The translations under genes were made by a program, and so were the position numbers. From Labilithrix sp. (lineage in GTDB: Bacteria; Myxococcota_A; Polyangia; Polyangiales; Polyangiaceae): a stretch of 32,233 bases of DNA. This document shows, piece after piece, positions 8,345 to 28,502 of this stretch. Position 1 is the stretch's first letter; every line of letters starts with the position of its first letter. The notes under the pieces are model-generated. The model was not told where the DNA came from and did not search any database. It worked only from the letters and a program-made list of their open reading frames with translations. The DNA is taken from assembly GCA_044227045.1 (NCBI GenBank), contig JBGAFW010000028.1, positions 83,667 to 115,899 on the forward strand, given 5' to 3'.

Positions 8345-8381
8345 CTTCTGGCTCCTTACGCACCCGCGAGCGGACGAGGTC

Positions 8382-8406
8382 GTGACAAAGAATTACAACC
8401 TTTCAC
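8382..8406. promoter_or_regulatory. AT-rich imperfect palindrome GTGACAAAG-aattacaa-CCTTTCAC in the dinB upstream / hydrolase 5' region (candidate operator)
   Basis: Inverted repeat with GTGA...TCAC ends, read directly. It lies 38-62 nt upstream of the dinB TTG start in otherwise ~70% GC DNA. It matches neither the E. coli nor the M. xanthus LexA-box consensus as I recall them. Confidence 0.3.
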
Positions 8407-17659: not shown

Positions 17660-20600
17660 ATGACCAAGACGACGACGCGCGCAGTGCTCCTCCTCGTTCT
17701 CTTCTCTCTCCTCGTCGTCGCGCAAGGAGGGTGCGCGCACGGCAAAGAGGCGCCGCCGAAGCTCACCTCGCGCCCACCCGCGCTTGCGGAAGGCACGGAG
17801 GCGATCGACGTGGCGGTCGATTGGGACGCGCATCCGCAAAGCAGCAAGACCGCGGACGCCAAGATCTCGCTGACAGCCTCGGACGGGTCGGGCCTCGTGC
17901 TGAGGTCGATCGACGCGCGCGCCGTGCTCTATGGCCCGCTCGCGTTCACCGAGGTGCACCTCGTCTTCGCGAACCCCGAACCCGTGATGCGCGAGGGCAC
18001 GTTCGCGATCGCGCTGCCCGCCGGCGCCGCGGTGAGTCGCTTCGCGATGAAGCTCCCGCAAGGGTGGCAAGAAGGCGAAGTCGTCGAGCGGCAGTCGGCA
18101 CGCGCGACCTACGAGACGTTCCTGCGAAAGCGCGTCGACCCCGCGATGCTCGAGAAAGACACGGGCTCGAGCAACGTGTTCCGTGGACGCGTCTTCCCGA
18201 TCCTGCCGCGGCAAGAGAAGGAGATCGTCATCGCCTACACCCAGACCTTCACCGCGGCGTCCGAGCCGTATCGCTTGCCGCTCGTCGGGCTCCCCTCGGT
18301 CGAGCAGCTCGACATCCAGCTCTTCGTCCCGAGCACGAAGAAGGCCTTCGTCGTGCATCGAAATGGCGTCAGGCCCGATCATGACTTCGAGGTGTCGCTC
18401 GCGGGTACACCCGACGCCGTTCGAGGTGGCCGCTTCGCCGTCGTGCGCGTGTCGGATCCCGACGCCCGCCCCGCGACGTCGAGCGGAGCGCCGAGCGGCG
18501 CGATGCAAGGTGATCTCGCCGTGCTGATCGACTCGAGCGCGTCGCGCATCGGCACGTACGAGCGCGACGTCGCCGCGGTGACGCGCATCGTCGGGGCGCT
18601 ACACCCGAGTGCGATCAAGGTCGCGTGCTTCGACCAAGAGGTGGAGCCGATGGCCTCGCTCGCGGAGGCAGCGAGGCGGCGACCTGCCGGCGCGACCGAT
18701 CTCGAGCGAGGTCTTCGCTGGCTCAAGACGACCGGCGCGAAGCGCGCGATCGTCCTCACGGACGGCTCGATGACGACCTCACCGCTGCCACCTGCCGCGC
18801 TCGGCGCGATCGCGAAGGAGATCGGCCTCGATCGGATCGACGCGATCGCGACCGGTGGGGTCCGCGCCGACACGATCGCGCTGCGTGCGCTCGCGCTGGG
18901 CGGCACCGTGGTGGACGTGGAAGACGCGCCGGGCGACGTCGCGGTCGCCCTCAAGATGCCCCCAGGCAGGGTCGGTCGCGCGTCGTTCGAAGGCGCCGCG
19001 ACCGCGTGGCCTTCGTCGCTCGCGAAGGCAGGGGCGCGGCGTTCGTCGGCGCTCGCGTTCGTCGAGATCGCCGAAGACAAACCGCTCCGTGTCGTGATGG
19101 ATGGCAAAGGTGGCGCGCAGCCGAGAGACGTGACGCGCATAGACACCGCACCTGCGGCGTTGATCGAGCGCGCGGTCGCCGAGGCGAAGATCCGCGAGCT
19201 CGAGGACGAGCGCGCGACGACGACGACGGAGGCGCGCAAGACCGAGCTCGCACGCGAGATCGTGTCGCTCTCCGTTCGTCATCGCATCTTGACGGAGCTC
19301 ACCGCGATGCTCGTGCTCGAGACCGAGGCGGACTACAAACGCTTCGACATTCCACGCGAGGCGATGCGCGACATTCCGGTGGTCGGACCGCGCGGCGTCG
19401 AGATCGTTCCTCGGGGTGGTGGTCAGGTGGTGCTCCCGCCAAGCCAGAAGAGCGTCTCGCCGATGATCGACGCCATCCGCGCCGGCGACCGGACCGCCGA
19501 CACCGATCGCGACGGCATCCCGGACGCCGACGATCGCTGCCCGAACGAGCCGGAGACGTTCAACGGCTTCGAGGACGACGACGGGTGTCCGGATCGCGGC
19601 ACCGTCATCATCGAGGCGAACCAGATCCTCATCTTGCAGATGGTGCACTTCAAGGACGGCTCGGCGGAGATCCTTCCGGAGTCGCTCCCCATCGTCCAGG
19701 CGCTCGCCGACACGCTCCGCTTTCACCCCGAGTTCGATCTCGTCGCGATCATCGGCCACACCGACAACCGCGGCTCGCCCGACGTCAACCGCGAGCTCTC
19801 CCTCCGGCGAGCGATGGCCGTGCGCGCGGCGGTGGTGGCGCGCGGCGTCGAGCCGCGACGGCTCATCGCACGCGGTGTGGGCGGCGCGTTCCCGATCGAT
19901 CCGAAGAACGACGCGGAGGCCTTCGCTCGGAATCGACGCGTCGAGTTCAAGATCCTCGTCGCGGACGGGAGCGCGACCGGCGTCGAGGTCCCCGGGCTCG
20001 ATAGGGCGCTCAAGCCGTCTGGCAAAGAGCAGGAGAGCGTCATGCCCTCGATGACCGTTCGTCGCGGCAAGCCCGCGCCCGTCGCCCATGCGCTGAGCGG
20101 GAAGCTCGCCGCGATTGCGCAGCTGCTCGAGCAGAAGAAGGCCGATGACGCGCTCCATGTCGCCGAGACGTGGCTGAAGACGTCGCCCGACGACATGCTC
20201 GCCTGGACCGCGCGCGGCCAAGCGCTCGACGCGCTGAATCGATCACGCGAGGCGGCGCGATCGTTCGGCTCGATCCTCGAGCTCGCCTCACGTCCCGAGC
20301 AGCGCCGCGCGGCGGCCGGTTGGCTCGAGGCGCTCGCCGCGCGACACAAAGAGGCGGGCGAGCTCGCGATCGCGCAGTATCGACGTGCCCTCGAGGAGCG
20401 GCCGGAGCATCCATCCTCCTATCGGCTCCTCGCGTGGTCCCTCGTGCGCGGAGGACACATCGACGAGGCGCTCGCCACGACGCTCGATGCGCTCGACCAC
20501 GCGGCGAGCTTCGATCCACGACGCTTCCCGATGGCGGTGGAGGCGTTGAAGAGAGACGCAGGCGTGCTGGCCGTCGCCGCGGGAAAGAACAAGGCGCCGG

Positions 20601-21010
20601 CCGAGCGCGAGGCGATCCTGAAGCGAGCGCGGTTCGCCGGCGCGATCCCTTCGGACGGCTCGAAGGCGTCGACCACGCTGGCGCTCACGTGGGAGACCGA
20701 CGAGAGCGATCTCGACATCCATCTCGTCCCCTCGAAGAACGCCTCCGAGCCGGTCTCGGTCGCCATGACCGACATCCGCGCAGGCTACGGCCCCGAGGTG
20801 ATCACGCTCGAGCCCGATCAGGTAAAGAAGGGCTGGACCCTGGCCGTTCACCAGGTCCGGCGAGGTCCGCAGGGCTTCGCGTTCGGAAAGGTGGCGATCG
20901 CGAGCCACGATGGCCTCGGCAACCTCTCCGTGAGCGACCGCCCGTTCGTCATCATGAACGAGAACGCGGCCGTTTCTCTAGGGACGATCTCCGATCACAG
21001 CGGTCCGTAA
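17660..21010 (+). CDS. Giant secreted lipoprotein: VIT domain - von Willebrand factor A domain - thrombospondin-type-3 Ca-binding repeat - OmpA C-terminal-like peptidoglycan-binding domain - TPR region - YfaP/DUF2135-like C-terminal domain
   Basis: ATG 17660 with a GAGAGG SD. Signal peptide plus lipobox (VVAQGGC). VIT-like beta region at aa ~70-250. vWA with MIDAS DxSxS (DLAVLIDSSAS ... TDG). DTDRDGIPDADDRCPNEPETFNGFEDDDGCPD is a TSP3 repeat. ...IIGHTDNRGSPDVNRELSLRRAMAV...NRRVEFKI is an OmpA-C motif. TPR-like helical repeats at aa ~800-985. C-terminal ALTWETDESDLDIHLV...GKVAIASHDGLGNLSV...FVIMNENA is the YfaP/DUF2135-like tail. Confidence 0.85.
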   Translation: MTKTTTRAVLLLVLFSLLVVAQGGCAHGKEAPPKLTSRPPALAEGTEAIDVAVDWDAHPQSSKTADAKISLTASDGSGLVLRSIDARAVLYGPLAFTEVHLVFANPEPVMREGTFAIALPAGAAVSRFAMKLPQGWQEGEVVERQSARATYETFLRKRVDPAMLEKDTGSSNVFRGRVFPILPRQEKEIVIAYTQTFTAASEPYRLPLVGLPSVEQLDIQLFVPSTKKAFVVHRNGVRPDHDFEVSLAGTPDAVRGGRFAVVRVSDPDARPATSSGAPSGAMQGDLAVLIDSSASRIGTYERDVAAVTRIVGALHPSAIKVACFDQEVEPMASLAEAARRRPAGATDLERGLRWLKTTGAKRAIVLTDGSMTTSPLPPAALGAIAKEIGLDRIDAIATGGVRADTIALRALALGGTVVDVEDAPGDVAVALKMPPGRVGRASFEGAATAWPSSLAKAGARRSSALAFVEIAEDKPLRVVMDGKGGAQPRDVTRIDTAPAALIERAVAEAKIRELEDERATTTTEARKTELAREIVSLSVRHRILTELTAMLVLETEADYKRFDIPREAMRDIPVVGPRGVEIVPRGGGQVVLPPSQKSVSPMIDAIRAGDRTADTDRDGIPDADDRCPNEPETFNGFEDDDGCPDRGTVIIEANQILILQMVHFKDGSAEILPESLPIVQALADTLRFHPEFDLVAIIGHTDNRGSPDVNRELSLRRAMAVRAAVVARGVEPRRLIARGVGGAFPIDPKNDAEAFARNRRVEFKILVADGSATGVEVPGLDRALKPSGKEQESVMPSMTVRRGKPAPVAHALSGKLAAIAQLLEQKKADDALHVAETWLKTSPDDMLAWTARGQALDALNRSREAARSFGSILELASRPEQRRAAAGWLEALAARHKEAGELAIAQYRRALEERPEHPSSYRLLAWSLVRGGHIDEALATTLDALDHAASFDPRRFPMAVEALKRDAGVLAVAAGKNKAPAEREAILKRARFAGAIPSDGSKASTTLALTWETDESDLDIHLVPSKNASEPVSVAMTDIRAGYGPEVITLEPDQVKKGWTLAVHQVRRGPQGFAFGKVAIASHDGLGNLSVSDRPFVIMNENAAVSLGTISDHSGP

Positions 21011-21159: not shown

Positions 21160-21747
21160 ATGGCTTTCACGCTGCCGAACCTGCCCTACGCGAAGGACGC
21201 CCTCGCGCCTCACATCTCTGCCGAGACGCTCGACTTTCACCACGGCAAGCATCATGCGGCTTACGTGAACAAGTTGAACGAGCTCTTGGCCGGCAAGCCC
21301 GAGGCAGAGAAGTCCCTCGAAGACGTCATCAAGGGCTCCGAGGTCGGAACGCCCGTGTTCAACAACGCGGCGCAGATCTGGAACCACACCTTCTACTGGA
21401 GCTCGATGAAGCCGAAGGGCGGCGGTCAGCCCACCGGCGATCTCCTCGCGGCGATCAACCGTGACTTCGGCTCGTTCGACAAGTTCAAGGAGGAGTTCAC
21501 CAACGCCGGCGTCACGCAGTTCGGCTCGGGCTGGGCATGGCTCGTCGAGAAGGACGGCAAGCTCGCCGTCACGAAGACTCCGAACGCCGACCTCCCGATG
21601 AAGCACGGCCAGAAGGCCCTCCTCACGATGGACGTGTGGGAGCATGCATACTACATCGATTTCCGCAACGCCCGCCCGAAGTACATCGAGACGTTCCTCA
21701 GCAGCCTCGTGAACTGGGACTTCGCGCTCGAGAACCTCAAGAAGTAA
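21160..21747 (+). CDS. sodB: Fe-type superoxide dismutase (Fe/Mn SOD family)
   Basis: MAFTLPNLPYAKDALAPHISAETLDFHHGKHHAAYVNKLN...AQIWNHTFYW...DVWEHAYYIDFRNARPKYIETF is a classic Fe/Mn-SOD fold with metal ligands H27, H74 (NHTFYW), D and H in DVWEHAYY. The AQ(I/V)WNHTFYW pattern favours the Fe type. AGGAG SD lies 10 nt upstream of ATG. Confidence 0.95.
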   Translation: MAFTLPNLPYAKDALAPHISAETLDFHHGKHHAAYVNKLNELLAGKPEAEKSLEDVIKGSEVGTPVFNNAAQIWNHTFYWSSMKPKGGGQPTGDLLAAINRDFGSFDKFKEEFTNAGVTQFGSGWAWLVEKDGKLAVTKTPNADLPMKHGQKALLTMDVWEHAYYIDFRNARPKYIETFLSSLVNWDFALENLKK

Positions 21748-21950: not shown

Positions 21951-24900
21951 TCAGAGCGCGCCGAGATCGAGCACGGTGCCCTCGTTCATGATCGTGAAGG
22001 GGCGCGGATCGATCGTGACGTTGCCCTTGCCGTCGTGGCGGACGACATGGACGACGCCGAGCACGTCGCCGCCTGTCCCTTTACGCTGGAGCCGAACGAC
22101 CGCGTTCAGCGCGCTCACGCGCTTGACGTCGGTGGCAAGATCGAGCGCCTCTGGGCCGAAGCCATCGAGCGCTTGGCTCGTCGTCGCGCCGTTGCGCTCC
22201 CCTTTCGCGTCGAACGCCTGGACGTCGATGTCGCTCGTGTCGGTCTCCCATGTCGCGACCGCTTGCACGGTCGATCGATCGCGGCTTCGCGCGTGGAGGA
22301 AGATCGCCTTCGACTCGATCATGTCGCGCTTGGCGGGCTCGGCCTGCGCCCAGGCCGCGGCGGCGAGGCCGAGATCGGTCGCCAAGAGATCGCTCACGCT
22401 GGCGAAGCGGAGCTCGTAGCGTCGCTTCATGCCGTTCGCGGCCGCCTCGAACGCGGCCTCCGGCTTGCCTGCGCGAAGGAGCTCGAGGCAGAGCAAGTGA
22501 TGCGACGAAGGTTGGTCGGGACGCTCGCTCGCCGCGCGACGGAGGAGATCGATCGCGATCGGATCTCCCGGACGCACCCGCGCGATCCGCACCGCCGCGG
22601 CGCGAAGCATCTCCGCGCGCTCCGGGTAGAGATCGGCGAGCGATCCATAGGCGCGCGTCGCGCGGTCTTTGTCGCCGGCCGCTTCGTATGCTTGCCCGAG
22701 CGCGACGAGGGCGATCGCGCTCGTGCTCCCCTCCCGCGCGCGAAGCTCCGTGGCCGCGTCGATCGCAGCCTTCGCGTTCGGCGCCGTCGTCGACGGTGAG
22801 GCGTCGCCGCCGAGGGACGCTGGCACGAAGGCCATCACGCGCCGATAGTCCATCGACCACGGAAAGAGCCTCTCCGCGGGCGACGGCGGCGCAGCCCCGG
22901 CAGACAGACGGAACGGCGACGGCGACCAGATCGTGGACGCGCTGACCGGCAAGTGCGCGGCCGGCGGAGACGCTTCGTCCTCGGCCGTGATCGGCGCGAG
23001 CATCAGCGGGTAGACCACCGTGATGTTGGCTCCCTCCGGAGCCGGGAACATGAGGTGGCGGAACACGTCGACGACGCACTCGATCGTCTTCTTGTCGGAG
23101 ATGTCCGAGCCGGCGTCCATCGCGGTCCCGACGGAGCCATCGCGCGTGACCACGAACTTCACGCTCACGCGTCCGGAGAATTCGCCGCGTCGGCGGAGGC
23201 CGTCTTCGTAACATGCGCGGAGGGCTCCCCAACGTTGCCGCACGATCCGCTGGATCACCTCCGGCGGAACTCGACCCGACACCGTCGTCGTCGCTTGCCG
23301 CATCGCCGGCGCCTTGGTCACGTGGCCCCGCGCCGGCGCGCTCGGCGTGGAAGGACTCGGAGGTGGCGGCGGAGGCGGCGCGGCCGACGACGACGCCTCT
23401 CGGCTCCGCATCCGCGCGACATCGGAGTCGTTCTCGAGCACGATGAGCGACGTGAACGGGCTCGCGAGCTTGTTCTTGCGCGCGATCGCGACGATCTCGC
23501 TCTTCCACGCGTCCTTCGTCGCAGCTTGTTCCCCACGGGCGATCAAGGCGTCGAGCTTTGCGACGGCCGACACGTGCTCGAGCATCGGCGAGGGCGCCGC
23601 GGTCACGGCGCTCGCGTCGATCGAATGCACCTTCCCGCCGATGTGTGCACGAAGAGGCGCGGAGCTCGGCATGCGCGCGAGCACGACGCGCGTCTCGTCG
23701 GGCGAGGCCGCCTCGAGCGCGGCGGTGGACGTCCACGTCGCGCCTTCGACGCTCACGGGCACGCGCGCCGCGACGCGCGAGCGGACACGCGCCTGGACCG
23801 TCTCGGCCGAGAGCCGCGGCGCGTCGTCGATCACCACGCCGTCGCGCGCGAAGATCGCGCTCGTCACGAGCGGGCGATAGAGGCGCAGGTCCGCGAGCGC
23901 GGAGGTCCCGAGCACATCGACGCGCTCGACCCCCGCCTTCGCGAGCTCGCCCATCGCGACGCGAAGCCGTGCTCCGTCGGCGGTCGGGCCTACACCGCCA
24001 CCGACGAAGATGACGCGCGTGGCGCGGATGCGCTTCGCCTCGACGCGCGCGGCCTCGAGGCCTCGCTCGAGATCGGCGACGCCGAGCGCGCCTCGAGCGG
24101 CGAGCGCCTTCGGCAGCGCCGCAGAGAGCGACGCGAGATCGCCGTCGTAGAGCCGCTCGGTCGATTGATCGTACGCGACGACCGCGGCGCGCGTGCGGCC
24201 CGACGATGACGACGCGAGCGCGCCGACGAGGCTCGCGGCCGCCTCGAGGGTTCCTTCCTTCGCGGCGCTCGTCTCGACGACGAACACGACCGCGCCTTCG
24301 AGCGGATCGGGCTCCTTCGCGACGAACGTGGGCACGCGCAGCGCGACGAGCTCACCCGCGCGCGCGACCTCGTTTCCGGTAGACCGCGCGGCGACGAAGC
24401 TCACGTCCGCCGTGGGCCGATCGTCTTCGAGGTGGATCGAGATCGGCTCCGTCGCGCCCTCGATGACGGAGACATCGAGCTTGTGCACCGCAGGAAGACC
24501 GCGAAGCGGAAACCACACCGGGGCGTCGGCGCCGCCGACCTCGGAGATGTACTCGATCGCGATCTCCTTCGCGCTCGCCCCGTCGATCGGGAACACGCGC
24601 GCCGAGATCTCGCGCTCGCGCCGTTGCTCGACGAGGAGCGGATCACGACGGCGATGAAGGATCTCTTCGTAGGTCTCACGCGCTGCGCCGATCTCGGCGG
24701 CGTCGGCCTCGCGCCACTCGCCCGAGATCTTCATCGCGAGCCGCGACACGGACGAGCGCGGCGGGAGCGTCATCCGGAAGCGCCCCTCGAGCGTCGACGG
24801 CGACGTGTTCCAGAACGTCGCATGCACCGCCGTTCGCGCGAGCGGACCGTGAACGTGGATGTTCACCGTGAGCTCCGCGAGCCGGATCGGCGTGCTGTCG

Positions 24901-25106
24901 TCCGCGATGAGCGATAGCGGCGCGCTCGCCGCTGGCGCCGAGCTCTGCGGGCCCGCGCTCGTGCCCCCGACCGGGATGACCGCGAACGCTCCGCGCGGTG
25001 ACGCGCCCGCGCTCGGAGTGGTGACGGCCGGGCTGCACGCCGCCTGGGCGATCAAAGCGGCGAACGCGATCGCCGAACGCGAGCCAAAGACGATACGTGG
25101 ACGCAC
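21951..25106 (-). CDS. Giant secreted protein, paralogue of 17660..21010: VIT - vWA - Pro-rich linker - AgmX/PglI C-terminal-like (TonB-C-like) domain - TPR region - YfaP/DUF2135-like C-terminal domain
   Basis: GTG 25106 with a GAGGTGA SD. Signal peptide MRPRIVFGSRSAIAFAALIAQAAC. VIT-like N-terminal region. vWA MIDAS (AVVFVVETSAA...). PPPPPPSPSTPSAP linker. Then EVIQRIVRQRWGALRACYEDG...VKFVVTRDGSVG...ECVVDVFRHLMFP, homologous to the kinase tail at 3321-3596. C-terminal VATWETDTSDIDVQAF...GVVHVVRHDGKGNVTI...FTIMNEGT aligns with the C-terminus of the first VIT protein. Confidence 0.85.
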   Translation of the reverse strand: MRPRIVFGSRSAIAFAALIAQAACSPAVTTPSAGASPRGAFAVIPVGGTSAGPQSSAPAASAPLSLIADDSTPIRLAELTVNIHVHGPLARTAVHATFWNTSPSTLEGRFRMTLPPRSSVSRLAMKISGEWREADAAEIGAARETYEEILHRRRDPLLVEQRREREISARVFPIDGASAKEIAIEYISEVGGADAPVWFPLRGLPAVHKLDVSVIEGATEPISIHLEDDRPTADVSFVAARSTGNEVARAGELVALRVPTFVAKEPDPLEGAVVFVVETSAAKEGTLEAAASLVGALASSSSGRTRAAVVAYDQSTERLYDGDLASLSAALPKALAARGALGVADLERGLEAARVEAKRIRATRVIFVGGGVGPTADGARLRVAMGELAKAGVERVDVLGTSALADLRLYRPLVTSAIFARDGVVIDDAPRLSAETVQARVRSRVAARVPVSVEGATWTSTAALEAASPDETRVVLARMPSSAPLRAHIGGKVHSIDASAVTAAPSPMLEHVSAVAKLDALIARGEQAATKDAWKSEIVAIARKNKLASPFTSLIVLENDSDVARMRSREASSSAAPPPPPPPSPSTPSAPARGHVTKAPAMRQATTTVSGRVPPEVIQRIVRQRWGALRACYEDGLRRRGEFSGRVSVKFVVTRDGSVGTAMDAGSDISDKKTIECVVDVFRHLMFPAPEGANITVVYPLMLAPITAEDEASPPAAHLPVSASTIWSPSPFRLSAGAAPPSPAERLFPWSMDYRRVMAFVPASLGGDASPSTTAPNAKAAIDAATELRAREGSTSAIALVALGQAYEAAGDKDRATRAYGSLADLYPERAEMLRAAAVRIARVRPGDPIAIDLLRRAASERPDQPSSHHLLCLELLRAGKPEAAFEAAANGMKRRYELRFASVSDLLATDLGLAAAAWAQAEPAKRDMIESKAIFLHARSRDRSTVQAVATWETDTSDIDVQAFDAKGERNGATTSQALDGFGPEALDLATDVKRVSALNAVVRLQRKGTGGDVLGVVHVVRHDGKGNVTIDPRPFTIMNEGTVLDLGAL

Positions 25107-25176
25107 GATTCGATCACCTCGTGCGGGTGAGAGACAGCGCTCTCCGAAGAGAGTTCCCCCAGCGGACGATCAGGCG

Positions 25177-25953
25177 CTATTTGGCGCGATTCCAGCGGTA
25201 AAGCTGGGCGGCAGGCTTCGACGTGGGCTTCGACGTCGCGGGCACGACGAGCTCGTTGTCGATGAGGCGCTTTCGAAACCCTCGAATCGGGAGCGACCGG
25301 CCGACGACGACCTCGTAGAAATGATGCAGCTCCGGAATCGTGAAGCGAGACGGGACGAGCTCGAAGGGACGCTCGCGGAGCGGATCATCGAGGTGTTGGC
25401 AGAGGCGGTGGTAGGCGCGCGCGATGATCTTCGCGTGGTCGAAGGCGAGGCGGATCGATCCGCTCTTCGTCTTCTTCTCTTGGCGCCGCATCTTTGGCGG
25501 CGGCGGGATCGACCGCGACGAAGAGATCGACTCGTCGAGCGCGAGCGATCGGAAGGAGTGCCAGTTCGCGTCGGCCGCGTCATCGCCCGCGGTGATCTTG
25601 GCCTCGGCGACGAGGAACGTCATCCATGCGACCGTGACGGTGTGGCCGCGCGGATCGCGCCCGGGATCGCCGAACGCGCCGAGCTGCTCGAGCTTCGCGC
25701 CGGTGAGGCCCGTCTCCTCGGCCAGCTCGCGCGCCGCGGCGCGCTCGAGCGACTCGTTCTCGTTCACGTAGCCGCCCGGCAGCGCCCACATCCCCTTGAA
25801 AGGATCGTCTTTTCTCTGGATGAGCAGGATCGCGAGATCATCGGCGCGAAGCGTGAAGATCACGCAATCACACGTCACGGACGGTCGCGGGTACGGATAC
25901 GTGAAGGGCACGGGCGGGAGCACGACATCCCGGACAGGACCTGCCGTCAACAA
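25177..25953 (-). CDS. NrtR-like regulator: N-terminal Nudix hydrolase domain (intact Nudix box) fused to C-terminal winged-helix DNA-binding domain
   Basis: Nudix box G-YVNEN-E-SLERAAA-RELAEETGL fits GX5EX7REUXEEXGU. The C-terminal LAFDHAKIIARAYHRLCQHLDDPLRERPFELVPSRFTIPELHHFYEVVVGRSLPIRGFRKRL matches the NrtR wHTH signature (FDHaeIL...LLPe.FTL.eLQ..YE.iLG......NFRrK). The start is uncertain: TTG 25953 or 25950, or GTG 25923. Confidence 0.65.
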   Translation of the reverse strand: MLTAGPVRDVVLPPVPFTYPYPRPSVTCDCVIFTLRADDLAILLIQRKDDPFKGMWALPGGYVNENESLERAAARELAEETGLTGAKLEQLGAFGDPGRDPRGHTVTVAWMTFLVAEAKITAGDDAADANWHSFRSLALDESISSSRSIPPPPKMRRQEKKTKSGSIRLAFDHAKIIARAYHRLCQHLDDPLRERPFELVPSRFTIPELHHFYEVVVGRSLPIRGFRKRLIDNELVVPATSKPTSKPAAQLYRWNRAK

Positions 25954-25972
25954 GCTAGACGCGTTGTCAGCA
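25942..25972. promoter_or_regulatory. 31-bp imperfect palindrome TGCCGTCAAC-aagCTAGacgc-GTTGTCAGCA centred on CTAG in the divergent NrtR-like / WYL-regulator promoter region (candidate shared operator)
   Basis: 8 of 10 arm positions pair, read directly. It lies 26-56 nt upstream of ATG 25998 and overlaps the most upstream candidate start of the NrtR-like gene. Confidence 0.4.
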
Positions 25973-25997
25973 AAACGTCATATTTGGACGACGTCTC

Positions 25998-26705
25998 ATG
26001 AAGCGCACCGAACGCCTGTTTGCCCTTGCGGAGCACCTCCGCGCGCGACGCACCGGGGTGACCGCCGAAGCCCTCGCCGAGCGCTTCGGCGTCACCGTCC
26101 GAACGATCTACCGCGACCTCGACACGCTCCGCGCCGCCGATCTGCCGCTCGCCGCCGAGCGCGGCCGTGGCGGCGGGTATGCGCTCGACAAGAGCTACAG
26201 CCTCCCGCCCGTCAACTTCACCGCGCGCGAAGCCGCGTTGCTCGTCGCGCTCGGACGATGGGCGAGCGAGATGCGCCTCCTGCCGTTCACCGACACGCTC
26301 GATCGCGCGCTCGACAAAGTGCGCGGCGCCCTCTCCGCGTCGGCGCAGCGCGAGCTCACCGGCAGGTTGAAGGAGCTCCAGTTCGCGGGCGTACCGCAGC
26401 TTCCGGTCGCGAAGGCGGTGCGCCAAGCCGTCGAGCGCGCGTGGTTCGAGCAGCAGCCGCTTCGCATCACCTACCGGAGCGGCAACTACGAGCGCACGAC
26501 GCGCGACATCCGCATCACCTCTGTGTTCATGGAGCGCACCGAGACACGCCTCAACGCGGTCGACCTGCAGAAGAACGAAGAGCGTCAGTTCCGCCTCGAC
26601 CGCGTCGAGAAGGCGGAGGTGCTCGGCGTCAGCGCGCCGTCGGGATCGCCGTCCGGCGCGTCCACGACGCCGGGGCCTACGAGCTCAACATCGACAGACG
26701 CGTAG
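25998..26705 (+). CDS. YafY-family transcriptional regulator: N-terminal DeoR-type HTH + WYL ligand-sensing domain
   Basis: MKRTERLFALAEHLRARRTGVTAEALAERFGVTVRTIYRDLDTLRAADLPLAAERGRGGGYAL is the canonical YafY/PafBC-type HTH N-terminus. The later region LRITYRSGNYERTTRDIRITSVFMERTETRLNAVDLQKNEERQFRLDRVEKAEVL is WYL-like. The low-complexity Ser/Thr/Pro C-terminal tail overlaps the convergent gene by 29 nt. Confidence 0.75.
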   Translation: MKRTERLFALAEHLRARRTGVTAEALAERFGVTVRTIYRDLDTLRAADLPLAAERGRGGGYALDKSYSLPPVNFTAREAALLVALGRWASEMRLLPFTDTLDRALDKVRGALSASAQRELTGRLKELQFAGVPQLPVAKAVRQAVERAWFEQQPLRITYRSGNYERTTRDIRITSVFMERTETRLNAVDLQKNEERQFRLDRVEKAEVLGVSAPSGSPSGASTTPGPTSSTSTDA

Positions 26706-28323
26706 CGACCGCGAAGGCGACGCCGATCGTGAGCGGCGTCATGTATCCGTTGATGCCTTGGTCACCCCAGATCTGCACGATGCAGATGGCGACACTGCCG
26801 AGCGCCGTCAGCGCCGCGCTTCGTTCGAGCGGCGTCCTCGCCACGCGATACCCACGCAGCGCGAGCGTCCCCGAGATCGGAAAGAGCATCCAGAGCATCG
26901 TGAAGCCGATGACGCCGCCGAGCGACCAGAGCCACAAGACGCCGTTGTGCGCGATGAGGCGGTAGTTCACGAACACGTCGGTGAGGTCGACGGGCGGGTT
27001 GTCCGGCGAATACTGGTACTCGAAGCCAAAGCCGGTCGTGAGCAGCGGGCTCTGCCGAAGCGTGTAGATGAGGTTCTCGTTCTCGATGTCGCGTGACTGC
27101 GCCGACAGGTCCTTCTGATCGAGCACGGACATGACGAGCTTCGCCGGCTTGAGCAGCGTCGACGGCGAGTTGATCTCGGAGCCGATCAGCACGTAGCCGA
27201 TCATCAGCGGCACGGCGAGGACGAGCGCGGCGGTGACGCGACGCTTTCGCCTGCTCGGCCTCAGCGCGAGGTAGATGATCGCCGGCGCGATCGAGAGGCT
27301 GACGAACGCGAGGCGGCGGTTGTTCAGCACGATCGCGAACATGATGAGCGCCGAGCAACCGATCGCGCGCACGATCGATCGCTTCGTGCGCTGCTCGAAG
27401 GCGTGCGTGACGACGATCAAGATCGAGACGACGAAGAGCACCGTGTCCGAGTGCGTGGTGCACCACTCCGGAAGGCCAGGCCGATCGGTGATGCCCATCG
27501 GCATGAACACGAAGAAGTAGATGTAGATGCAAAAGACGCTGCGAAGGAGCGCGGTGATGACGAAGATCGACCCGATCGCGGCGAGGTCCTCTGGGACGCG
27601 CAGCGCATACAAGAAGAGGAGCGCGATGAGCGGCAGCTGCACCATGTGCAGGATCTGCCGGACCACACCCTCGATCGTGCCGCCGTGGATGAGGCCCCAC
27701 GCGCTCAGCACGACGATGGTGCCGAGGAACGTGAAGAGGACGTTCTTGGCGAAGCGCGGCGGAGGGATGTACTCGGCCGCCTTCTTTCCCCAGACGGCGC
27801 GATACAAGAGCCCCGCGGTCACGAAGAAGAAGACGGGCAGCGAGGCGCCCGGCATGCCGCTCCACTCCTTGATCGTGCCGTAGTAAGCGACGGCGGCAGG
27901 CCAGAGGTACGTGTCCCAATAGCCCTCGCCTTGCAGCTTGAGCATCGCCTCGCTGAACGGCTCGATGAAGAGCGAGAGCACGAGGAAGATGCGGATCGAG
28001 CGCTGCATCTTGAAGCGCGCCATCGCCCAGAAGAGGAGCGGTCCCCAGACGATCACGAACGCCGTGTCGAAGCGGAACGTGTTCGACCACACGTTCGGCG
28101 CGTCGAAGGTGGGCGCGGCCGCGAAGTACGCGAAGAGCGACGCGGCGAAGACGCCGAGGATGATGCGAATCGTCGGCTTCCTGAAATCGTCCTCGAGGAT
28201 CGCGCTGTCGTCGTAGACGACCTCTTCCCCGTCACCCGCGTTCGTATAGTGGCTGAGCTGCTGCTTCACGCGCTCGTTCAGTGCGGCGCGTTGGTTCGGA
28301 GCGAGATGAGGCCTCAGATTCAT
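26677..28323 (-). CDS. Polytopic inner-membrane protein with O-antigen-ligase/Wzy_C-like domain (putative glycan ligase/polymerase)
   Basis: Preferred start is ATG 28323 (MNLRPHL...) with AGGGA 8 nt upstream. The ORF track extends it to 28380. It has ≥10 predicted TM helices. The C-terminal segment TGFGFEYQY...RLIAHNGVLWLWSLGGVIGF resembles the Wzy_C 'G.G.g...aHN.ylq.l.E.G..G' signature. Confidence 0.5.
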   Translation of the reverse strand: MNLRPHLAPNQRAALNERVKQQLSHYTNAGDGEEVVYDDSAILEDDFRKPTIRIILGVFAASLFAYFAAAPTFDAPNVWSNTFRFDTAFVIVWGPLLFWAMARFKMQRSIRIFLVLSLFIEPFSEAMLKLQGEGYWDTYLWPAAVAYYGTIKEWSGMPGASLPVFFFVTAGLLYRAVWGKKAAEYIPPPRFAKNVLFTFLGTIVVLSAWGLIHGGTIEGVVRQILHMVQLPLIALLFLYALRVPEDLAAIGSIFVITALLRSVFCIYIYFFVFMPMGITDRPGLPEWCTTHSDTVLFVVSILIVVTHAFEQRTKRSIVRAIGCSALIMFAIVLNNRRLAFVSLSIAPAIIYLALRPSRRKRRVTAALVLAVPLMIGYVLIGSEINSPSTLLKPAKLVMSVLDQKDLSAQSRDIENENLIYTLRQSPLLTTGFGFEYQYSPDNPPVDLTDVFVNYRLIAHNGVLWLWSLGGVIGFTMLWMLFPISGTLALRGYRVARTPLERSAALTALGSVAICIVQIWGDQGINGYMTPLTIGVAFAVATRLSMLSS

Positions 28324-28502
28324 CGCGGACGGGTCCCTGCTTTGGAGGCAAGGGGAGCCACCGAGAGAGGCTATCAGCACCGAGACAAAGTGTTCAGCGT
28401 CTCCTGACCCTCGCTACGAAAACCATCTAGGATAGGAGACCGCACGTCCGACATGAGGCCTTTGCCCTGAGCTCCAAAGAGTCTGCGATCAGCGGGCCGA
28501 TC

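Follow-up and report, generated by a model that had tools for sequence, protein, structure and literature searches.

A WYL-type regulator with a conserved upstream box and its divergent NrtR-like neighbour in Labilithrix sp.

Introduction

SiwR (MSMEG_1359) of Mycobacterium smegmatis is a WYL activator that is encoded divergently from genes of the DinB/YfiT thiol-transferase superfamily and is induced by genotoxic stress (PMC10693628). PafBC, which activates the DNA-damage response in actinobacteria, consists of two paralogs that each carry a WCX domain and act as a heterodimer or are fused. BrxR and CapW, which carry a helix-turn-helix (HTH) domain and, after it, a WYL domain, repress an adjacent phage-defence system. 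A different kind of regulator is represented by NrtR (SO1979, Slr1690, MSMEG_3198) and NuhA, in which a Nudix domain resembling ADP-ribose (ADPR) pyrophosphatases is combined with the NrtR winged helix (PMC2330246, PMC6800001). In the NrtR family, linkage to NAD genes was recorded in 42 of 62 cases, and ADPR pyrophosphatase activity goes together with an intact Nudix signature (PMC2330246). This study concerns a stretch of 32,233 nucleotides of Labilithrix sp. (contig JBGAFW010000028.1, positions 83,667 to 115,899), called the window below, in which a gene for an NrtR-like protein (nrtR; 25177..25911, minus strand) and a gene for an HTH-WYL regulator (25998..26705, plus strand) lie head to head.

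A first-pass annotation of the window had described these two genes as a dual-sensor module with one common operator, a 31-bp palindrome between them, and had included in the module a giant VIT-vWA gene located behind nrtR. A literature search found no paper that relevantly connects NrtR with WYL regulators. The comparison with orthologous loci favours another arrangement. We regard it as probable, with some reserve, that the two regulator genes are independently promoted and are neighbours by inherited synteny, not parts of a module with a shared operator. Both proteins are of known kinds, and the pair is not a new module. The comparison was based on the loci of four Polyangia metagenome-assembled genomes (MAGs) that carry an NrtR ortholog (L001-L004) and on 80 metagenome loci retrieved with the WYL protein as query. 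The set of WYL orthologs comprised 85 Myxococcota loci.

Results and discussion

The palindrome between the two genes

The head-to-head arrangement of the two genes was confirmed. The start codon of nrtR was placed at GTG 25911 by comparison with 18 orthologous loci, in which GTG-CCC-TTC (VPFTYPYPRP) is conserved. The TTG at 25953, which was the mechanically assigned start, and the candidate GTG at 25923 are not conserved in the orthologs. With the revised start the intergenic region is 86 bp long (25912-25997). The annotation had put it at about 45-75 bp.

The palindrome TGCCGTCAAC-N11-GTTGTCAGCA (25942..25972, no strand assigned) is centred on CTAG and imperfect, with 8 of 10 arm positions complementary. 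It occupies much of the intergenic region. Its significance was estimated with a chance test for 10-nt arms with at least 8 of 10 matches and a spacer of at most 15 nt, applied to the 74-bp region 25924-25997. An inverted repeat of comparable quality appeared in 18% of shuffles of this region and in 47% of the 74-bp windows of this 67% GC sequence. A repeat finder working with 6-nt seeds returned no inverted repeat at 25942-25972. In nine head-to-head orthologous loci the complementarity of the arms falls to 4-6 of 10 positions and the spacer varies from 13 to 149 nt. In those loci where a gene for a glutathione S-transferase-like (GST-like) protein is inserted, the arms are about 900 nt apart. 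Considering the chance controls, the repeat finder and the ortholog comparison together, the palindrome is neither significant nor conserved. Also, it is not of the 21-bp GT-N7-AC form by which NrtR sites are known (PMC2330246).

The two arms can be assigned to different elements. The left arm corresponds to a -35-like sequence, GGTTGACGGCG, which is found 29-35 nt before the nrtR GTG in most orthologous loci. The right arm belongs to a box, TGWCA-N6-TGTCA, of which it is the first half-site. This box is located upstream of the WYL gene and is named the WYL-box here. In the window the -35-like element of nrtR lies 14 bp from the first half-site of the WYL-box. The palindrome is thus best read, from its alignment across loci, as a chance juxtaposition of two separate elements and not as a unit. 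That it serves as an operator common to NrtR and WYL proteins, in a dual-sensor module that would also control the VIT-vWA gene, is accordingly very improbable in our judgement, even though the repeat is present as annotated and the two genes do co-localise within a clade. The insertion of the GST-like gene between them in eight loci speaks against it as well.

The WYL-box

The WYL-box of the window, TGTCAGCAAAACGTCA (25965..25980, plus strand), was located with a regular expression and a position weight matrix (PWM). It consists of two TGWCA-type half-sites 11 bp apart and lies 17 nt before the WYL start codon. The regular expression TG[TA]CA-N6-[TC]G[TA]CA was matched upstream of the WYL ortholog in 67 of the 85 loci. 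At a PWM threshold of at least 14 bits the number rose to 75 of 85, and the median distance to the start codon was 11 nt. The consensus derived from 63 unique sites is nTG(T/A)CAG-c-n-t-T-A-TGTCAG-(G/T)-T-(A/T)-T, and a strong example is TGTCAGCGGTATGTCAGGTAT. The box is present whatever the divergent neighbour is, whether NrtR, GST-like, PolB, cupin, epoxide hydrolase or glutathione-dependent formaldehyde-activating enzyme-like (GFA; PF04828) genes. The shared intergenic region that contains it is usually shorter than 100 bp. The half-site TGWCA is its own reverse complement except for the central base, and where TGACA forms the first half, as it does in 13 of the 63 sites, the box becomes a true inverted repeat. 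Because of this near self-complementarity, the WYL-box suits a dimeric HTH protein.

The distribution of the box outside the WYL promoter was obtained from a PWM scan of 528 kb on both strands. Every match was located either at the start of a WYL gene or downstream of such a start by more than 1 kb. There were seven downstream matches, and six of them precede GFA genes. Six loci (L140:6241-6265 and its equivalents in L113, L125, L133, L149 and L152) have such a second box, with scores of 34-37 bits, at 36-59 nt before the start of a GFA gene convergent with the WYL gene. Since the GFA boxes are independent of the WYL start, the WYL-box is a regulon site linked to this regulator and more than an element of the WYL promoter. 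The most parsimonious binder would be the WYL protein itself. In the proposed mechanism the WYL protein would bind, probably as a dimer, the two TGWCA half-sites of the consensus TGTCAG-cnnTA-TGTCAG-gTaT just upstream of its own start codon. From this position it would regulate its own gene and control the divergent gene and other genes that bear the box.

In a different assignment the box would not be a WYL operator. It would belong to the core promoter or to the leader, or another global regulator acting on WYL and GFA genes would bind there. In most loci only 3-20 nt separate it from the start codon, which is unusual for an activator site, and its half-site is similar to a portion of generic -35 or -10 sequences. 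On the other hand, the box tracks the WYL gene across the classes of Myxococcota irrespective of the neighbours, and elsewhere it occurs only beside genes linked to a WYL gene. The spacing of the half-sites fits a dimeric winged HTH (wHTH) protein. Autoregulation from an adjacent site is also typical of WYL regulators, as illustrated by the palindrome between siwR and its targets. We consider this assignment quite unlikely.

The WYL-box was compared with the PafBC site. Its half-site TGTCAG resembles the -26 element tGTCgg of PafBC (PMC8635444). The complete motif of the PafBC hybrid promoter, tGTCgg(N10)tA(N3)T, was rejected as a model for the box because its spacing does not fit. The WYL-box is also not known to match the LexA box of Myxococcus xanthus. 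A further sequence with one mismatch to the box, TGTCACGACCTCGTCC (8372-8387, minus strand), lies 28 nt upstream of the start (8344) of dinB, which encodes a Y-family polymerase. It scores below the PWM threshold, 1.6 such sites are expected by chance, and it is probably meaningless.

The probable promoter of nrtR

The -35-like element of nrtR, GTTGACGGCA on the minus strand (25942..25951), is conserved in orthologs and contains the hexamer TTGACG at 25950-25945. The sequence GGTTGACG(G/T)C was present upstream of nrtR in 19 of 19 orthologous loci. In most of the loci the element precedes a 17-nt spacer, after which come a weak -10-like hexamer (often TCTCTT), 6-10 nt and the GTG. The element, TTGACGGC, stays directly upstream of nrtR even in the loci where the GST-like gene separates nrtR from the WYL gene. 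It probably represents the -35 of nrtR's own promoter. The geometry from the element to the start codon suggests that the nrtR mRNA is leaderless or near-leaderless. In the proposed arrangement nrtR would be transcribed from its own promoter, and its product, probably an active Nudix enzyme-regulator, would have its targets elsewhere. In the 19 nrtR upstream regions that were aligned, no conserved 21-bp GT-N7-AC palindrome was found. Some loci of the Labilithrix clade have a short GAGA-NN-TCTC dyad upstream of nrtR, which is absent from the window.

Conservation of the gene pair

A search of 185,579 species representatives gave NrtR orthologs of at least 61% identity in no more than four MAGs, all of them from Polyangia. 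The next-best relatives are proteins of Bacteroidota with about 42% identity. The WYL gene adjoins the NrtR ortholog in all of the four related genomes, and NrtR is also present in 14 of the 80 metagenome loci retrieved with the WYL protein. The two genes thus co-localise in other genomes as well. Among 80 NrtR-like loci collected across phyla, a clear WYL neighbour appeared only in the four myxobacterial loci, and the WYL profile gave a single weak match (L027, E 1e-5) in the other 76. Most of the WYL orthologs adjoin other genes. Both the NrtR ortholog and its adjacency to the WYL gene are confined to a Labilithrix/Polyangiaceae clade, and a pair of Nudix-wHTH and WYL proteins is not a general module.

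The orthologous nrtR loci share further flanking genes with the window, namely those for superoxide dismutase (SOD), WYL, Wzy and VIT proteins. The SOD gene lies beyond nrtR wherever the contig extends that far, and for this reason SOD-nrtR-WYL is regarded as an inherited syntenic block. nrtR is either the first divergent gene or stands behind a GST-like gene on the same strand. This GST-like gene (GST_N_2/GST_C_2, about 850 bp) lies between the WYL gene and nrtR in eight loci of the sister group (L003:4629-5434, L091, L092, L093, L095, L101, L115 and L142). It is on the nrtR strand, and the WYL-box is in the short WYL-GST intergenic region. Either the Labilithrix clade has lost the GST-like gene or the sister group has acquired it.

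The gene behind nrtR, VIT-2 (21951..25106, minus strand), encodes a protein of 1051 aa with a VIT domain, a weak vWA match, an AgmX/GltG-type C-terminal domain and TPR repeats, as identified with Pfam and NCBIfam. The nrtR stop codon is 70 nt from the first start of this protein on the same strand, as the annotation had stated for the window. Apart from the window, L004 is the only one of the four related genome loci in which VIT-2 comes after nrtR. In L001-L003 a convergent SOD gene comes directly after nrtR, and in the metagenome loci that reach past nrtR the SOD gene lies just beyond it, leaving no room for VIT-2. VIT-2 is therefore a neighbour and not a conserved part of the unit, which further reduces the case for the common operator with VIT-2 as a target.

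The synteny can also be explained in a second way. In the Labilithrix/Polyangiaceae clade nrtR, alone or as GST-nrtR, could belong to the WYL regulon through the box, and ADP-ribose/NAD turnover would then be linked with the stress response of the WYL regulator. The position of nrtR is in line with this possibility, since all 18 loci that contain both genes have nrtR on the divergent side of the box, and its ortholog never lacks the WYL gene in the four related genomes. Other divergent neighbours look like regulon members. In addition, 53 nt separate the nrtR start from the beginning of the box in the window, which falls into the range of the GFA boxes (36-59 nt). On the other hand, the distance from box to nrtR varies greatly among the loci, and nrtR retains a -35-like element of its own directly upstream. 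A PWM scan for a second box between the GST-like gene and nrtR gave none. The adjacency is equally explained by a single ancestral insertion and vertical inheritance, with SOD as a further syntenic neighbour. Membership of nrtR in the WYL regulon is in our view possible but somewhat unlikely.

The WYL regulator

The identities given in the annotation were confirmed by Pfam domains for both proteins. The open reading frame (ORF) 25998-26705 encodes 235 aa with HTH_11 (1.1e-13) and WYL PF13280 (1.4e-9) domains, the latter an Sm-like domain that senses ligands, and its conserved core covers residues 1-212. The WYL model of PADLOC matched the protein with 5.7e-41. Its orthologs across Myxococcota, among them those of Hyalangium, Vitiosangium, Pendulispora and Myxococcaceae, are 75-94% identical, and in the 75 loci with the box the WYL identity is about 70-94%. 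They are about 212 aa long and end 4-15 residues past the WYL domain, so that the WCX domain, which most but not all WYL factors have, is missing. The Trp-Tyr of the WYL motif is replaced (T-R-L/I), and FRLDR is kept. The ORF of the window carries in addition a Ser/Thr/Pro-rich tail of 23 residues (26637-26705), which most orthologs lack and which shares 29 nt with the 3' end of the convergent Wzy-like gene (26677-28380). The tail could be a recent stop-codon shift or a tolerated read-through.

A search of the PDB with the single WYL sequence gave zero matches. The family profile matched PafBC (6sj9) with 3.3e-45, and the alignment runs from residue 3 into the N-terminal HTH region of PafBC. 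The match to chain AY of the PafBC-RNAP complex 7p5x (PafC's PafBC partner) covers HTH + WYL and was 1.3e-27, and that to 8tp8, deposited as a DeoR-family regulator, was 7.7e-21. BrxR/CapW were matched with 1e-8 to 1e-12. PafBC (6sj9, 7p5x) is therefore the closest solved relative by profile. In contrast to PafBC, each locus has a single WYL gene of about 212 aa without a WCX domain, with no pair of PafB and PafC paralogs, and the pocket residues differ. BrxR/CapW share the HTH + WYL architecture, but their profile match is weak and covers the WYL domain only. Also, the neighbours here are chromosomal housekeeping and detoxification genes in place of a phage-defence system. The defence-locus context that the annotation had hinted at for the WYL regulator finds no counterpart, since PADLOC detected no defence system or defence-like protein among the flanking genes.

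By architecture and context the regulator recalls SiwR. Both proteins combine a wHTH and a WYL domain, are divergent from detoxification-type genes and have the operator, here a putative one, in the shared intergenic region. SiwR responds to genotoxic and oxidative stress, which parallels the GST, GFA, epoxide-hydrolase and PolB neighbours of the present family. In SiwR, however, a WCX domain is present, and the site is an imperfect palindrome of 19 bp located upstream of a -10 element. The myxobacterial protein is devoid of WCX and of Trp-Tyr, and its putative box has two TGWCA half-sites by its own start codon.

Neighbours of the WYL gene

The divergent neighbour of the WYL gene is variable. 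It is NrtR in 10 loci, GST-like in 8, Cupin_2 in 5, PolB in 4, Extensin-like_C, epoxide hydrolase and aldehyde dehydrogenase in 3 each, GFA in 2, CcmB in 2 and an AlkZ-like glycosylase in 1. A divergent GFA gene that shares the box was noted in the three loci L104, L159 and L162. In Hyalangium and Vitiosangium a family-B polymerase of about 800 aa is divergent from the WYL ortholog (L081:3504-5906 and L083:3412-5862), and polB has the same position on the metagenome contigs L112, L127 and L151. The polB-WYL intergenic region measures about 55-138 bp and has the box inside, which makes polB a candidate member of the regulon. Most of these neighbours belong to detoxification or DNA repair, which suggests that the response is to electrophile or genotoxic stress. 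Such a signal would be sensed by the non-canonical WYL pocket.

The NrtR-like protein

The NrtR-like protein has 244 aa and consists of a Nudix domain and an NrtR-type winged helix, an assignment drawn from Pfam, PDB and NCBIfam matches together with the ortholog-based start. In the ORF 25177-25953 (minus strand) the Pfam NUDIX domain PF00293 was matched with 8.6e-21 and NrtR_WHD PF21906 with 3.9e-12 (46.6 bits against a cut-off of 27). The Nudix box, GYVNENESLERAAARELAEETGL, is an exact fit to GX5EX7REUXEEXGU, in agreement with the annotation, which had called it intact. Its catalytic residues (REx2EE) are kept in 4 of 4 close orthologs. Against the PDB, the protein matched NrtR-family 2fml (6.6e-34), S. 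oneidensis NrtR 3gz5 (6.3e-29, with the C-terminal stretch aligned too) and Bacteroides AraR (BtAraR) 5bs6 (1.3e-26). NCBIfam gave matches to NadM-type ADPR pyrophosphatase domains. The score for the NtrR equivalog NF050029 was 131 bits against a cut-off of 400, which is below the equivalog level. Judged from these scores, the protein is a member of the NrtR family and not an equivalog of the characterised ADPR-responsive repressors.

The intact Nudix signature suggests that the protein both hydrolyses and senses an ADP-ribose-like nucleotide. The signature matches the catalytically active type represented by NuhA, and activity is predicted on this ground. Unlike the known NrtR proteins, it is far below the equivalog cut-off, and no conserved GT-N7-AC palindrome was found upstream of its gene. 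No NAD biosynthesis or salvage gene was found among the 23 genes of the window, and the DNA targets of the protein probably lie outside it.

One of the distant relatives has a separate context. In Xanthocytophaga flavus (L006:5971-12283) an NrtR-like gene of 42% identity stands next to an AlkZ-like glycosylase gene and heads an EPS-type (exopolysaccharide) cluster with UDP-GlcNAc 2-epimerase, glycosyltransferases and Wzy_C. A general link of NrtR-like genes to EPS/Wzy was rejected, as this context appeared in 0 of the 79 other loci.

The genomic setting

The window has a length of 32.2 kb, a GC content of 66.6% and 23 genes, which by their kinds look chromosomal. For the genes under study, the closest relatives are in Labilithrix and other Polyangia MAGs. 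The pair is flanked by the genes for Wzy-like, SOD and VIT proteins. The Fe/Mn SOD gene (21160-21747) lies between two paralogous genes for giant VIT-TPR proteins (17660-21010, plus strand, and 21951-25106, minus strand). One of these proteins has an OmpA domain, and the other has the AgmX/PglI/GltG-type C-terminal domain that is typical of myxobacterial gliding-motility proteins. Some relatives have only one VIT-TPR copy at this position. The other genes of the window encode a Ser/Thr kinase, the DinB-type polymerase, HlyD, an ABC ATPase, FtsX-type permeases, a Wzy-like polymerase and several hydrolases. The Rfam search of the window returned zero RNA families. A terminator scan of 25000-26900 gave a single terminator-like match, which lies inside the nrtR coding sequence and occurs at the chance rate.

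Points against the preferred reading

Several observations weigh against two separately promoted genes with the WYL protein acting at its own box. The scan of 25000-26900 with the sigma-70 consensus found zero promoter-like sites for either gene. The WYL-box of the window is a weak copy, with 22 bits against a median of 32 and CGTCA as its second half-site, and the box could be bound by another factor. The AlphaFold model of the WYL protein, built from a shallow alignment, reached a predicted local distance difference test (pLDDT) value of 56 and is too poor for use. The detoxification and repair theme among the neighbours is a qualitative impression. Finally, the constant place of nrtR on the divergent side of the box is what a regulon member would display. 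Considering both sides, two independently promoted genes kept together by inherited synteny is the reading that we prefer.

Conclusions

A dual-sensor module with a shared operator would be a new regulatory architecture if true, and the evidence speaks against it. The NrtR-like gene is an added example of a member of the NrtR family with an intact Nudix signature that is unlinked to NAD genes.

In M. xanthus, further damage regulators that are independent of LexA and DdiA remain to be identified (PMC12288472). A wider proposal is put forward tentatively, and we hold it to be rather unlikely as a whole. A WYL regulator present throughout Myxococcota and without WCX and Trp-Tyr would control, through the WYL-box, a plastic set of adjacent detoxification and repair genes (GST-like, GFA, epoxide hydrolase, aldehyde dehydrogenase, AlkZ and PolB), and it may be a LexA-/DdiA-independent damage regulator. 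In Labilithrix/Polyangiaceae a catalytically competent NrtR-like protein would be part of this set, and ADP-ribose/NAD turnover would thereby be linked to the stress response. Its conserved box, the missing WCX and Trp-Tyr and the neighbouring detoxification and repair genes make the WYL regulator a reasonable candidate for an uncharacterised myxobacterial stress regulator. The regulator and its cis-element form a well-defined pair that is conserved across myxobacteria, and the WYL-box can be used to predict the regulon in each genome.

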